Assembly: GCA_016871815.1 (NCBI GenBank)
Contig: VHBT01000003.1
Span: 14,317-78,316, forward strand
From: Candidatus Babelota bacterium
Lineage (GTDB): Bacteria > Babelota > Babeliae > Babelales > GCA-2401785
Length of the DNA: 64,000 nucleotides
Reading direction: 5' to 3'
Positions within the stretch are counted from its first letter, which is position 1; every line of letters starts with the position of its first letter. Made by a program: the position numbers and the translations under genes. This document shows, one piece after another, positions 50,955 to 53,687 of the stretch. Below the pieces are notes generated by a model. The model searched no databases. It was given only the letters and a program-made list of their open reading frames with translations, and was not told the DNA's origin.

Positions 50955-53687
50955 ATGATACAAAAAACAATCTTAAAAACCACGTTAATCGCTCTTCTTT
51001 TTGCTCCATCACTCAATAAGGCTGCAAGCTTTGGTGGGTTTATGCGCGGAACTCGCGACACCGTTATCACCCTCAGTATTCTGGCATCAATTTACCTTGC
51101 ATGGGTACATTTTTCTGCAACAACAGACGAAGCCATTTTAATGAATCAGCTTTTAGCACAAAATGCGATTCCTTCGCACATAAAAAAAATTATTACCTCA
51201 AAAATTAAATATGCCTCCCTCAGAAGAAATACCTATATTTCCTACGTCCTTAAATACCCATGGGAAAAACAATTTCCACCAGCAGTAAATCTGAGCAAAG
51301 CACACGAAACACTCCAATCTCACCATGGAATGAATCTTGTAAAAACGCACATACTCGAACAAGTTGCATTATTGCAACTCAATCCATCTCTCAAGCTACG
51401 CCCAATTTGTTTAGTTGGGCCATCGGGAACGGGAAAGACTTCAATTGCTCAAGTAATTGCTCGTGCTATGAATAGACCGTTTAATATTCTTTCGATGGGA
51501 AATGATGAAAAATACTTCAGAGGATTTGAATACACCTATGAAGGCTCAGAACCCGGTGCATTCATGAAGCTGCATACCAACTTCAAAAACAAATTCAGCG
51601 TCATATTGTTTGATGAACTTGATAAACTCAATAACAAAGCAGCTCAAACTATTCTTGAAGCTCTTGACCCAGAAAGAAATAGTGAATACCAAGATACATT
51701 TATGGATTTTCCAATCGATCTTTCTAACCATTTTTTTATCGCAACAGCTAACGATCTTTCTAAAATTCCTTCAGCGATTAAAGACCGGATGACGATTATT
51801 AATGTCGATCCATACACCCCAAAAGAAAAAGAAATAATTGCACTCAAAAATTTTATCCCAAAACTCAAAGAAGAATACAACCTTCCAGAGGATGCTATTG
51901 CAGAATTAACCGCACTAATGCCACTCATTATCGAAAGAACATCTCGAACTATCGAAGGCGAAAATGGCGTTCGAACACTCCAACAAGCACTCAAGTCTTT
52001 AGCTGCTAAATATTACACCGCTTTTCTTATGGGAAAAAAAATTTCAATAACAAAAGAGAATCTTTCATCGTACCTAGATCCACAATTTTCAGAATTTAGA
52101 CTTTCTGATACCCCAGAAGATGCTATCATGTACGCCAATACGCACCTCAAACGCTTGCGGGTGTCTCAAGAAATATTCAGAAGAATTGAAGATCGAATCA
52201 GCGATTTTAAAGGATATGCAGACAAAACAAGTGCAACGCTCATCCGGACCTATGTCGACTGGATTTTAAAATATCCCTTTGTGTCTCAGCAACCAAAGAC
52301 ACCACAGTTTTCTGAAATCATGGCCCAGCTCAATGCAACTCACTACGGAATCTGGCACATAAAAAAAATAATTTGCGAATACCTTGCTGGATTTTTGAAA
52401 AGCAACGGCAAATCAAAAAAAATTCTCTGTTTTCATGGCTATCCTGGCGTTGGAAAAACAATGGCAGCAGAATCTATCGCAAAAGCGCTAAACCGACCAT
52501 TTATCAAAATTTCTCTCTCGAATATCAGGAATTTTTCTAACGAATATCAGCAGCACCCCGGGCACCTTGCAAAAGCCCTCATCTCTGCAAAAAGCCAATA
52601 CCCAGTAATCCTCTTTGATGAGCTCGATAAAATGGATGCCTCACTTTTTACAGAACTTTTGGAAGCTTTTGACACCAACCAAAACAATGCAATCAAAGAT
52701 CATTATTTAAATATTAACATAGATCTTTCTAACGCTCTGATTATCGCTACTGCTAACGATATAGAAAGAATTCCTCATCCGCTCTTAAACCGTATGGAAC
52801 TTGTCCAAATTCATCCCTACACAGTGCAGGAACGTCTTGAAATAGCAAAAAAACACCTGCTTCCTAAGATTCTACAACTGATCCCTCTCCAAGACGAGTC
52901 TGTCGCAGCGTTAGAAAAAATTACACCAGAAATTACAATTATACTGTCCCAATATGAAGCCGGAGTTCGCAAACTCAACCAATTACTCACCAAAGCGGCT
53001 GAACAGTTGGCGTTTATCGAACTTACCGAAACAAGCGAAAAAACAAAGCTCATTCAAGAAATCACCGCCGAAAAAATTATTGGTGCAGAAAGTGCTGATA
53101 TCTTACAAGAATGGGATGCCTCAAAACCTCTTACAATTCCAACTATCGGCGTTGTAAATGGCATGTATGCCGGAGGAGCTTGCGGCGGAGGATTACTAAA
53201 AATTCAAGCCAACATTATCCCTGGCGGAACCGGCCTTCTCATCAAAAATGAACTTGGTGGTAAAACCGCACAAATATCACACCAACAAACTCTTATGTTT
53301 ATAAAAACATTTGCTGACAAGCTTGGTATACATTCAGAAATATTAAAAAATTCTGACTTTGCTATTACAAAACAAGATTATAATGAATTTGATGGACCTT
53401 CTGCGGGAATCGCGCAAACAGTTGCTCTTATTTCTGCGCTTACAAAACGTCCTGTAAAACCAGGATATGCTGTCACTGGTGCAATGGATGCACTCGGAAA
53501 TCTCATTCCCGTCGGCGGCTATCGTGATAAAATTCAAGGAACTATTTATGCGGGAATAACACAATTTGTTGTTCCTGAATGTGCGCGAAGAACGATTGAA
53601 ACGCTACTTCCAGAATTACCAGAAATCACCGTCCATTTTGTAAAAACAATCGATGAGGCAGTTAACATTCTTCTTGAAAAACCATAA
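50955..53687 (+). CDS. Membrane-anchored Lon-like protease with two tandem Lon AAA+ modules and one S16 protease domain
   Basis: 910 aa. Module 1 has ...VLKYPW, GPSGTGKTS (51417-51443), ILFDELDK, LDPERNSEYQDTF and AIKDRM. Module 2 has ...ILKYPF, GYPGVGKTM (52437-52463), ILFDELDK, FDTNQNNAIKDHYL and PLLNRM. The protease has FDGPSAG (Ser codon 53400-53402) and GGYRDK, with Lys at +43. Confidence 0.9.
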   Translation: MIQKTILKTTLIALLFAPSLNKAASFGGFMRGTRDTVITLSILASIYLAWVHFSATTDEAILMNQLLAQNAIPSHIKKIITSKIKYASLRRNTYISYVLKYPWEKQFPPAVNLSKAHETLQSHHGMNLVKTHILEQVALLQLNPSLKLRPICLVGPSGTGKTSIAQVIARAMNRPFNILSMGNDEKYFRGFEYTYEGSEPGAFMKLHTNFKNKFSVILFDELDKLNNKAAQTILEALDPERNSEYQDTFMDFPIDLSNHFFIATANDLSKIPSAIKDRMTIINVDPYTPKEKEIIALKNFIPKLKEEYNLPEDAIAELTALMPLIIERTSRTIEGENGVRTLQQALKSLAAKYYTAFLMGKKISITKENLSSYLDPQFSEFRLSDTPEDAIMYANTHLKRLRVSQEIFRRIEDRISDFKGYADKTSATLIRTYVDWILKYPFVSQQPKTPQFSEIMAQLNATHYGIWHIKKIICEYLAGFLKSNGKSKKILCFHGYPGVGKTMAAESIAKALNRPFIKISLSNIRNFSNEYQQHPGHLAKALISAKSQYPVILFDELDKMDASLFTELLEAFDTNQNNAIKDHYLNINIDLSNALIIATANDIERIPHPLLNRMELVQIHPYTVQERLEIAKKHLLPKILQLIPLQDESVAALEKITPEITIILSQYEAGVRKLNQLLTKAAEQLAFIELTETSEKTKLIQEITAEKIIGAESADILQEWDASKPLTIPTIGVVNGMYAGGACGGGLLKIQANIIPGGTGLLIKNELGGKTAQISHQQTLMFIKTFADKLGIHSEILKNSDFAITKQDYNEFDGPSAGIAQTVALISALTKRPVKPGYAVTGAMDALGNLIPVGGYRDKIQGTIYAGITQFVVPECARRTIETLLPELPEITVHFVKTIDEAVNILLEKP

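Follow-up and report, generated by a model that had tools for sequence, protein, structure and literature searches.

Can a Lon protease, the standard single-ring AAA+ protease, naturally carry more than one complete AAA+ module in each of its chains? This question is raised by a 910-codon open reading frame (ORF; positions 50955-53687, + strand) in a 64,000-nucleotide (nt) stretch of contig VHBT01000003.1 from Candidatus Babelota bacterium (hereafter the window), a segment of bacterial chromosome that also carries an rRNA operon (3134-8268) and six tRNA genes. An earlier note, made from the DNA letters alone, had proposed that the encoded protein (L910) comprises two complete tandem Lon AAA+ modules followed by a single S16 protease domain in one ORF, and profile, pairwise, and structure-prediction tests bear this out. 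Each of the two L910 modules has a Lon AAA+ fold in which all motifs for the binding and hydrolysis of ATP are present. L910 and other natural Lons that contain two or three modules depart from the single-ring standard.

The Pfam search of L910 returned two AAA stretches and one Lon_C domain (amino acids [aa] 728-908; 89.4 bits against a cutoff of 21.1; E = 3.1e-25) among the best 25 of 38 families; NCBIfam results given below likewise refer to the best 25 families. Pairwise alignment of the modules with each other and with LonA, a check that the earlier note had suggested, came out in favor of its claim. Specifically, the AAA+ module of the LonA encoded in the window, when used as a phmmer query, matched L910 at aa 91-359 (E = 1.8e-42) and again at aa 422-698 (E = 4.3e-48), with both matches spanning nearly the entire alpha/beta core and lid, and the two L910 modules share 37% identity across a 266-aa alignment (E = 3e-47). 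Such agreement is more than chance could produce by a wide margin. The duplicated unit comprises pre-AAA helices (YxxWxxKYPF/W), the core and lid, and a copy of the linker that joins lid to protease (ENLxxYLxPxF), such that each module is preceded by a helical segment that ends in LKYPW or LKYPF.

All features of L910 lie on the + strand. The first pre-AAA helical segment (51132-51290, ending in YVLKYPWEKQ) is homologous to the helices 5' of the LonA AAA+ core. It leads into module 1 (D1; aa 91-366; 51225-52052), which scores 337 bits against the module hidden Markov model (HMM) and carries Walker A GPSGTGKTS (aa 155-163, with Lys161; 51417-51443), the pore-1 loop YTYEGSEPG (51531-51557), Walker B VILFDELDK (Asp220 and Glu221; 51600-51626), sensor-1 Asn266 (TAND) through the Arg finger Arg278 (KDRM; 51744-51791), and the sensor-2 motif GVR with Arg340 (51966-51974). 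In the inter-module segment (52053-52238), a copy of the linker that joins lid and protease in LonA (ENLSSYLDPQF) precedes the second set of pre-AAA helices. Module 2 (D2; aa 429-701; 52239-53057; HMM score of 349 bits) carries Walker A GYPGVGKTM (aa 495-503, with Lys501; 52437-52463), a shortened pore-1 loop FSNEYQQHPG (52533-52562), Walker B VILFDELDK (Asp555 and Glu556; 52605-52631), sensor-1 Asn601 (TAND) through the Arg finger Arg613 (LNRM; 52749-52796), and the sensor-2 motif GVR with Arg672 (52962-52970). The Walker A positions in the earlier note were exact, and its list of motifs stands for Walker A and B, ATAN, DRM/NRM, and YPW/YPF; it fails for LDPxxN, which is canonical in module 1 alone (LDPERN, as opposed to FDTNQN in module 2). 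The Lys of Walker A and the Asp of Walker B are 59 residues apart in D1 and 54 in D2, compared to 61 in the LonA of the window.

A single S16 (Lon_C) protease domain of the A type follows (53103-53681) and matches the protease (P) domains of Lon structures in the PDB. Its catalytic Ser816 (DGPSAG; 53391-53408) and Lys859 (GGYRDK; 53514-53531) motifs are invariant in our family alignment (A1), and the 43 residues that separate Ser816 from Lys859 equal the spacing of S679 and K722 in E. coli Lon (PMC9569914).

AlphaFold2 modeling of full-length L910 from a 21-sequence alignment yielded a mean predicted local distance difference test (pLDDT) score of 83 and a predicted template modeling (pTM) score of 0.54, and both modules (pLDDT of ~90) had an identical order of strands and helices. 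When this model was searched with Foldseek, only the D2 and protease part aligned, jointly, to solved LonA structures (TMt of 0.75-0.85). A model of module 1 alone (aa 60-400; pLDDT of 88.9, pTM of 0.84) aligned to the AAA+ modules of human LONP1, yeast PIM1, and the Y. pestis and Thermus Lons (TMq of 0.75-0.81) with a root-mean-square deviation of ~3 Å over ~330 columns, and these alignments included the pre-AAA helices. The monomer model thereby confirms an AAA+ fold for module 1, the lack of which would have refuted the claim of the earlier note.

The L910 gene is real and continuous. The ORF begins with ATG and has zero internal stops, and its protein is 100% identical to one (P0001) deposited as 'AAA family ATPase [Candidatus Dependentiae bacterium]'. 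The Logan assembly of SRR7990546 matches 16.6 kb of the window at 99.99% identity and contains the same set of five genes. DNA repeat comparison detected no near-identical DNA common to the two modules and no intragenic repeats, and we therefore rule out a repeat-driven misassembly. Fused but diverged relatives were identified in the full neighborhood on contigs from other samples, namely L002 (ENA) and L085 and L086, the last two being different runs that both carry an identical 927-aa ortholog (P0125). The conserved order of this neighborhood is OmpH, Pth, an ABC ATPase on the opposite strand, LonA, an AAA-only gene, and multi-AAA Lon genes. Synteny is only partial in two metagenome-assembled genomes (MAGs) from NCBI, one of which (L003) has a two-module Lon directly 3' of LonA and the other (L004) a pair of neighboring multi-AAA Lon genes. 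The inter-module junction (DPxFxxxRLSxP) is kept as protein sequence in orthologs from other samples that are 37-40% identical to L910, and both P0003 and P0125 have DPYFTQLRLSEP. Collectively, the independent Logan assembly and the fused orthologs in the same synteny effectively exclude the assembly error, or split into two genes, that the earlier note had considered.

When 1.84 billion cluster representatives were searched exhaustively with HMMER, 18,912 hits were returned, and we scanned the best 150 of these with module HMMs. In at least 33 of the 150 (889-1829 aa), a single Lon_C domain comes after two or three Lon-type AAA+ modules, and some of these proteins are encoded on contigs of 0.3-1.1 Mb. 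By these sequence matches, the L910 architecture is that of a recurrent family and not of a singleton, and the search for such proteins in public and metagenomic data that the earlier note had called for was thus productive. All ATPase residues and an aromatic pore loop are present in every module of many members (e.g., P0128, P0129, P0135, P0155, and the three-module P0132), and the names attached to family proteins in their sources are only 'AAA family ATPase' and 'ATP-dependent Lon protease'. The module tree described below shows that the tandem duplication arose several times independently: identity between the modules of a protein ranges from 95% (P0128, P0155) down to ~50% (P0130, P0135), and there are further clades in which modules are position-specific.

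A contig scan with alignment A1 identified one tandem-AAA Lon in a single ORF among the genome matches listed (1317 aa; on a 7-Mb contig of a Vicinamibacterales MAG of the Acidobacteriota), the rest being ordinary LonA; the longer of these listed matches in named isolates did not have two modules in one ORF. The 32 pattern matches obtained in a contig scan with L910 alone included zero that encode a relative, and a protein search with the family profile, the 8000 candidates of which were filled by LonA, added no new members. Two giant metagenomic proteins, P0161 (3865 aa) and P0210 (2597 aa), were rejected because each has a different architecture of two separate AAA-plus-Lon_C units. We also rejected P0006 (ENA, 986 aa), a LonA in which a ~225-aa block (APDVKGQIICLVGPPGVGKTS...KHLVPKQLDA, two occurrences) is exactly doubled, likely through an assembly duplication; this protein is a useful negative control for genuine tandem-AAA Lons.

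Two distant members of the family, P0133 (locus L087, 6001-10140) and P0165 (locus L088, 6001-8670), are encoded among short unannotated ORFs, a resolvase, an integrase, and transposases. Such gene content suggests that mobile or variable regions carry some branches of the family.

A simple neighbor-joining tree of modules recovered a clade, denoted here as class A, that comprises the first modules of L910, P0002, P0003, P0121, P0125, and P0126. Its sister clade, class B, comprises the later modules of those proteins, the third modules of P0123, P0124, and the window protein L1253, and the module of a further window protein, L586. Because the two sister clades sort by position, D1 and D2 are, on this tree, position-specific orthologs within the L910 clade, and the duplication predates the divergence of these proteins. 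Class A modules always have intact motifs and an aromatic pore loop, while the aromatic residue is mostly lost in class B. In the nearest two-module ortholog of L910, P0125, D1 is intact and D2 no longer has Walker B, sensor-1, an Arg finger, or sensor-2.

In L910, D1 (class A) retains the pore-1 aromatic Tyr195, which with Glu196 occupies the position of Tyr-Val in LonA. The pore-1 loop of D2 (class B; NEYQQHPG, with Tyr531-Gln532) is seven residues shorter than that of LonA and overlaps a block of low pLDDT (aa 521-530), and the pore-2 segment GxxxRGDP that is present in LonA and in the window protein L376 is missing from both D1 and D2. The view in the earlier note that both modules look active consequently holds for the ATPase motifs, which are present in both, and is qualified by the shortened loop in D2, by the loss of pore-2 from both, and by the motif-dead D2 of P0125.

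The N-terminus of L910 differs from that of LonA. Hydropathy scans identified a signal-peptide-like hydrophobic segment at aa 6-20 (ILKTTLIALLFAPSL; 50970-51014, + strand) and a predicted transmembrane helix at aa 35-53 (51057-51113, + strand; mean Kyte-Doolittle score of 1.88), which is also a helix, of low pLDDT, in the AlphaFold2 model. These two segments stand in place of the LonA substrate-binding domain: PF02190, which is detected in the neighboring LonA (E = 4.3e-31), was not among the best 25 of the 38 Pfam hits of L910, all of which fall in the AAA+ and Lon_C regions, and a purpose-built LonN HMM was also negative on L910. The two-segment N-terminus recurs in the paralogs and in most of P0002-P0005 and P0125. 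The two segments probably anchor L910 in the inner membrane. Most of the protein would face the cytoplasm, because the flank after the second segment is positively charged (Lys/Arg-rich) in P0002, P0003, P0125, and L586 and because an ATPase needs ATP. A periplasmic or secreted L910, as the signal-peptide-like segment might imply, was rejected on account of the second hydrophobic helix, the positive charges that follow it in homologs, and the need for ATP.

L910 is one of four tandem Lon paralogs in the window, all on the + strand, that have one to three modules each and are predicted from sequence to be membrane-anchored. The earlier note did not mention the anchor, the missing LonA N domain, this array, or the wider family of such Lons. 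Directly upstream of this array is a canonical LonA (45403-47856, + strand; 817 aa) with LON_substr_bdg, AAA, Lon_lid, and Lon_C domains, which scores 871.9 bits against TIGR00763, over the cutoff of 608. The first paralog, L376 (47919-49049), has a hydrophobic N-terminus and one Lon AAA+ module that resembles class A and has an intact Tyr-Val pore loop, and it is without a protease domain. The second, L586 (49180-50940), comprises a membrane anchor, one class B module, and an S16 protease, and its stop codon is 14 nt 5' of the L910 start codon, which is itself preceded by a purine-rich stretch. The fourth, L1253 (53789-57550), comprises three AAA modules and an S16 protease (Lon_C); module 1 no longer has a Walker A, module 2 shows DN at Walker B, Lys at sensor-1, and no Arg finger, and module 3 is intact.

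A 15-bp hairpin with a T-run (47864-47900, + strand) 3' of LonA is a likely terminator that splits LonA from the array. No + strand hairpin comparable to it was found within or between the four paralogs, and the remaining terminator-like matches on that strand are all upstream of L376. Given this distribution of hairpins and the 14-nt gap between L586 and L910, the four paralogs may form one operon. Downstream of the array, two copies of the 32-nt CAAAATAACAGGGCCCGGATTTCTCCGGGCCC (57566-57597 and 58148-58180), which form GC-rich hairpins with T-runs on the - strand, flank an apparent small gene on that strand (~57610-58030, not confirmed). These copies are probably terminators, and the first may also terminate the Lon paralog array.

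Membrane-anchored, protease-less Lon AAA+ proteins that resemble L376 and have a fully canonical pore loop are conserved directly 3' of LonA in several Dependentiae genomes (e.g., locus L002, 8929-9879; locus L085, 8728-9912). As read from its domains, L376 might unfold substrates by itself or cap the adjoining proteases.

How might two AAA+ modules and one protease domain work together? With moderate confidence, we consider it likely that L910 is a LonA-derived, N-domain-less, ATP-dependent serine protease, probably membrane-anchored, that places a tandem of D1 and D2 ahead of the S16 domain and operates through stacked rings. Six L910 chains would form one S16 chamber and two stacked homomeric AAA+ rings (twelve modules). 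The D1 ring would grip and thread the substrate, as suggested by the retained pore-1 Tyr and by motifs that are always intact in orthologs. The D2 ring would hydrolyze ATP with less grip and would mainly hold the hexamer together, pass the chain on, and couple it to the protease; this lesser role is proposed because its pore-1 loop is shortened and because D2 is degenerate in some orthologs (P0125). Such an enzyme would likely degrade membrane or membrane-proximal proteins, for which FtsH and LonB are precedents, and it would probably act together with its putatively co-transcribed paralogs (the AAA-only L376, the one-module protease L586, and the three-module protease L1253).

Given the architecture of the protein and its paralogs, L910 most likely assembles as a hexamer with a stacked double ring. 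Six chains are parsimonious since every solved Lon has a six-fold S16 ring and the S16 domain of L910 is conventional. Stacking is favored over a ring of alternating modules because the exit of D1 is a copy of the protease-facing linker and the entry of D2 is a copy of the helices on the opposite face, and because single-tier paralogs of each class exist (L376, which is class A-like, and L586, which is class B with a protease). More tentatively, and in a wider form that we think has a little less than an even chance of being right, L910 and its relatives would use two or three stacked, competent Lon AAA+ rings to feed a fused S16 chamber at the membrane, a ClpA/ClpC-like design that was re-invented repeatedly, with the four-gene array acting as a set of combinable tiers.

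Several observations weigh against this account of L910. The full-length model, with a pTM of just 0.54, does not resolve the geometry of D1 relative to D2. The pore Tyr of D1 is followed by Glu rather than by a hydrophobic residue, and both modules are without the pore-2 segment, such that efficient threading is not guaranteed. The tree from which the module classes are drawn has no support values. Lastly, the charges that flank the transmembrane helix of L910 itself are ambiguous, in that Lys/Arg residues occur in the loop that leads into the helix and acidic ones follow the helix, and its cytoplasmic orientation consequently depends on the homologs and on the need for ATP.

Alternatively, L910 might be a subunit of rings or stacks that mix paralogs, such as hetero-hexamers of L910 and L1253 or assemblies in which L376 caps L586 or L910. 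The four paralogs are apparently one transcription unit, and a trio of an AAA-only protein, an active multi-AAA protein, and a partly degenerate multi-AAA protein is conserved across Dependentiae loci. Moreover, L1253 aligns with the D1, D2, and protease of L910 at 41% identity, yet its upstream modules are dead, and partner subunits with dead modules are typical of AAA+ hetero-hexamers (e.g., Pex1/Pex6 and FtsH/FtsHi). However, all solved Lons are homo-oligomers and L910 holds every motif that it would need to function alone. We regard a mixed assembly as unlikely, with roughly one chance in four in its favor.

A second alternative is that D1 and D2 alternate within a single six-module ring, which would make L910 a trimer (and three-module relatives a dimer) with fewer than six protease domains. 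The module counts in the family (one, two, and three) all divide six, the Arg fingers of both modules could act across D1-D2 interfaces, and the pTM of 0.54 leaves room for such an arrangement. Nevertheless, the S16 domain of L910 closely resembles those from which the six-fold chambers of all solved Lons are built, the D1-exit linker and D2-entry helices correspond to elements on opposite faces in LonA, which fits stacking better, and the existence of L586 and L376 as separate proteins, one class B with a protease and the other AAA-only, implies that each class can form rings of its own kind. An in-plane ring is accordingly an improbable arrangement.

It is far less probable still that L910 is part of an anti-phage defense system or mobile element, comparable to BrxL or to AAA+ defense ATPases. 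This reading draws on weak PADLOC matches (DolB at 96 bits and BrxL at 39 bits), on the resolvase, transposases, and small ORFs near the distant relatives P0133 and P0165, and on HerA-like and MutS domain V (MutS_V)-only genes 10-17 kb upstream of L910. The PADLOC scores are small when compared to the 533 bits of the LonA model and reflect generic AAA and Lon_C similarity, the BrxL model TIGR02653 scores L910 at 34 bits against a cutoff of 628, and the locus is syntenic across Dependentiae amid housekeeping genes (OmpH/Skp, peptidyl-tRNA hydrolase, the ABC ATPase, and LonA). We rejected the defense reading on the basis of the weak PADLOC scores and the housekeeping synteny. Finally, that L910 is an artefact in which assembly or sequencing error joined two adjacent Lon-like genes has a negligible chance of being correct: single-module paralogs (L376 and L586) do adjoin L910 and the database protein P0006, with its two exactly identical copies, does look like a product of assembly, but an independent assembler reproduced the ORF, the modules are merely 37% identical and free of DNA repeats, orthologs with 37-40% identity retain coding sequence across the junction (two samples carrying the identical P0125), and the same architecture recurs in at least 33 of the cluster representatives, some of them from contigs as long as 1.1 Mb.

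Other features of the window were recorded in the course of this work. Three large proteins of 733, 1014, and 1239 aa (27940-30141 on the - strand, and 35464-38508 and 38519-42238 on the + strand) have MutS_V as their sole real Pfam match, and two of them are encoded directly downstream of a HerA-like ATPase (33698-35308, + strand); there were no PADLOC hits to these proteins. A 1097-aa protein (58207-61500, - strand) with a Y_phosphatase match at aa 670-698 and a DSPc match at aa 979-1063 looks, from these domains, like a host-directed effector. The spacer between the 16S and 23S rRNA genes (6425-6611, - strand) encodes tRNA-Ile(GAT) and a second tRNA-Ile with the anticodon TAT, instead of the usual pair of Ile and Ala. 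A tRNA-Ile with a UAU anticodon is uncommon in bacteria, and its presence suggests that AUA may be decoded without TilS.

Placed among known systems, L910 is a member of the S16 Lon proteases in the broad sense, since its Lon_C domain with a Ser-Lys dyad follows a Lon-type AAA+ module in the same chain. TIGR00763, the LonA model, is by far its best NCBIfam match, at 533.4 bits over two stretches, which is under the cutoff of 608.05, and PRK10787 scores 395 bits against a cutoff of 891; both sub-cutoff scores are consistent with the name 'AAA family ATPase' that NCBI gave the protein. From this best model, the A-type catalytic center with its spacing of 43 residues, and the Walker A-B spacing of 59 and 54 residues compared to 61, L910 is derived from LonA. 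Its modules and protease are 30-35% identical to LonA (endopeptidase La; E. coli and Y. pestis Lon, human LONP1; MEROPS S16 subfamily A, S16.001), which also supplies its best PDB matches (TM scores of ~0.8) and shares the pre-AAA helices and the DGPSAG center. In contrast to LonA, L910 has two AAA+ modules per chain and a hydrophobic anchor where the LON N domain would be, lacks the pore-2 segment, has a shortened pore-1 loop in D2, and falls under the TIGR00763 cutoff; it thus has the catalytic center of a LonA and not the N domain, single module, or equivalog score.

The same plan of an N-terminal membrane anchor, a cytoplasmic AAA+ module, and a fused protease in one chain is seen in FtsH. 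FtsH, however, has a lone AAA+ module, which belongs to another clade, and its protease is a zinc metalloprotease (M41) rather than S16, and the combination of AAA and Peptidase_M41 was not among the best 25 Pfam or NCBIfam families of L910. With its anchor and conserved paralog array, L910 points to an unstudied system of membrane proteolysis in Dependentiae, which are obligate intracellular parasites of protists.

By the features tested, L910 is not a LonB, LonBA, LonC-like protein, BrxL, or Clp. LonBA (B. subtilis 'LonB') is similar to L910, and especially to L586, in having an N-terminal anchor and an A-type center and in being without the LonA N domain (PMC9569914). Yet LonBA and archaeal LonB, both of them presumably membrane-bound, carry one AAA+ module where L910 has two (PMC9569914). 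In LonBA, 82 residues also separate the Lys of Walker A from the Asp of Walker B, and the P domain contains a beta-hairpin insert (PMC9569914); the corresponding spacings in L910 are 59 and 54 residues. Archaeal LonB has a transmembrane insert between Walker A and B and a B-type (E/D)GDSA site (PMC9569914), whereas L910 has no hydrophobic insert and a DGPSAG site. The NCBIfam LonB models score L910 far below their cutoffs (TIGR00764 at 72 bits against 516.6; TIGR02902 at 60.5 bits against 723), and L910 falls outside both LonB groups despite its N-terminal anchor.

In having two AAA+ modules in one polypeptide, L910 resembles the class I (type II) AAA+ unfoldases ClpA, ClpC, ClpB/Hsp104, p97, and NSF, and a stacked double ring would be expected; as in those systems, some relatives of L910 appear to have one degenerate ring. 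The modules of L910, however, both match Lon best, are of the same Lon type, and stem from a recent duplication instead of belonging to two anciently distinct clades, and its protease is fused in the chain, whereas ClpA and ClpC dock on a separate ClpP (PMC6722904). The ClpA model scores L910 at 33.6 bits against a cutoff of 993, which places it outside Clp/Hsp100.

Reviews class Lon as having a single AAA+ module (PMC6722904, PMC9569914), and a 2008 survey of Lon_C domain architectures listed none with two AAA domains (PMC2605481). We found no description of a tandem-AAA Lon in the full-text literature searched, in which coverage of subscription journals is incomplete, such that absence is not proven; the remark in the earlier note that double AAA+ rings are not known for Lon fits this literature. 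A related idea is the hypothesis of Rotanova and Gustchina that the HI(CC) domain of LonA is what remains of the lid of a first AAA+ module that has since been lost (PMC6722904). That hypothesis, too, envisages a Lon with more than one AAA+ module, and the existence of tandem Lons demonstrates the viability of such a design and gives context to the proposed vestigial module. The extra modules of L910, however, are secondary duplications of the LonA module, pre-AAA helices included, and not a surviving ClpB-like D1, and tandem Lons consequently neither confirm nor refute the hypothesis. Ranging from proteins with all modules intact to proteins with gradedly degenerate ones, they instead offer an evolutionary series on what the gain of a second ring provides (grip, processivity, regulation, or hexamer stability), and on whether specialization of the rings, with the D1 pore loop intact and that of D2 reduced, follows duplication predictably.

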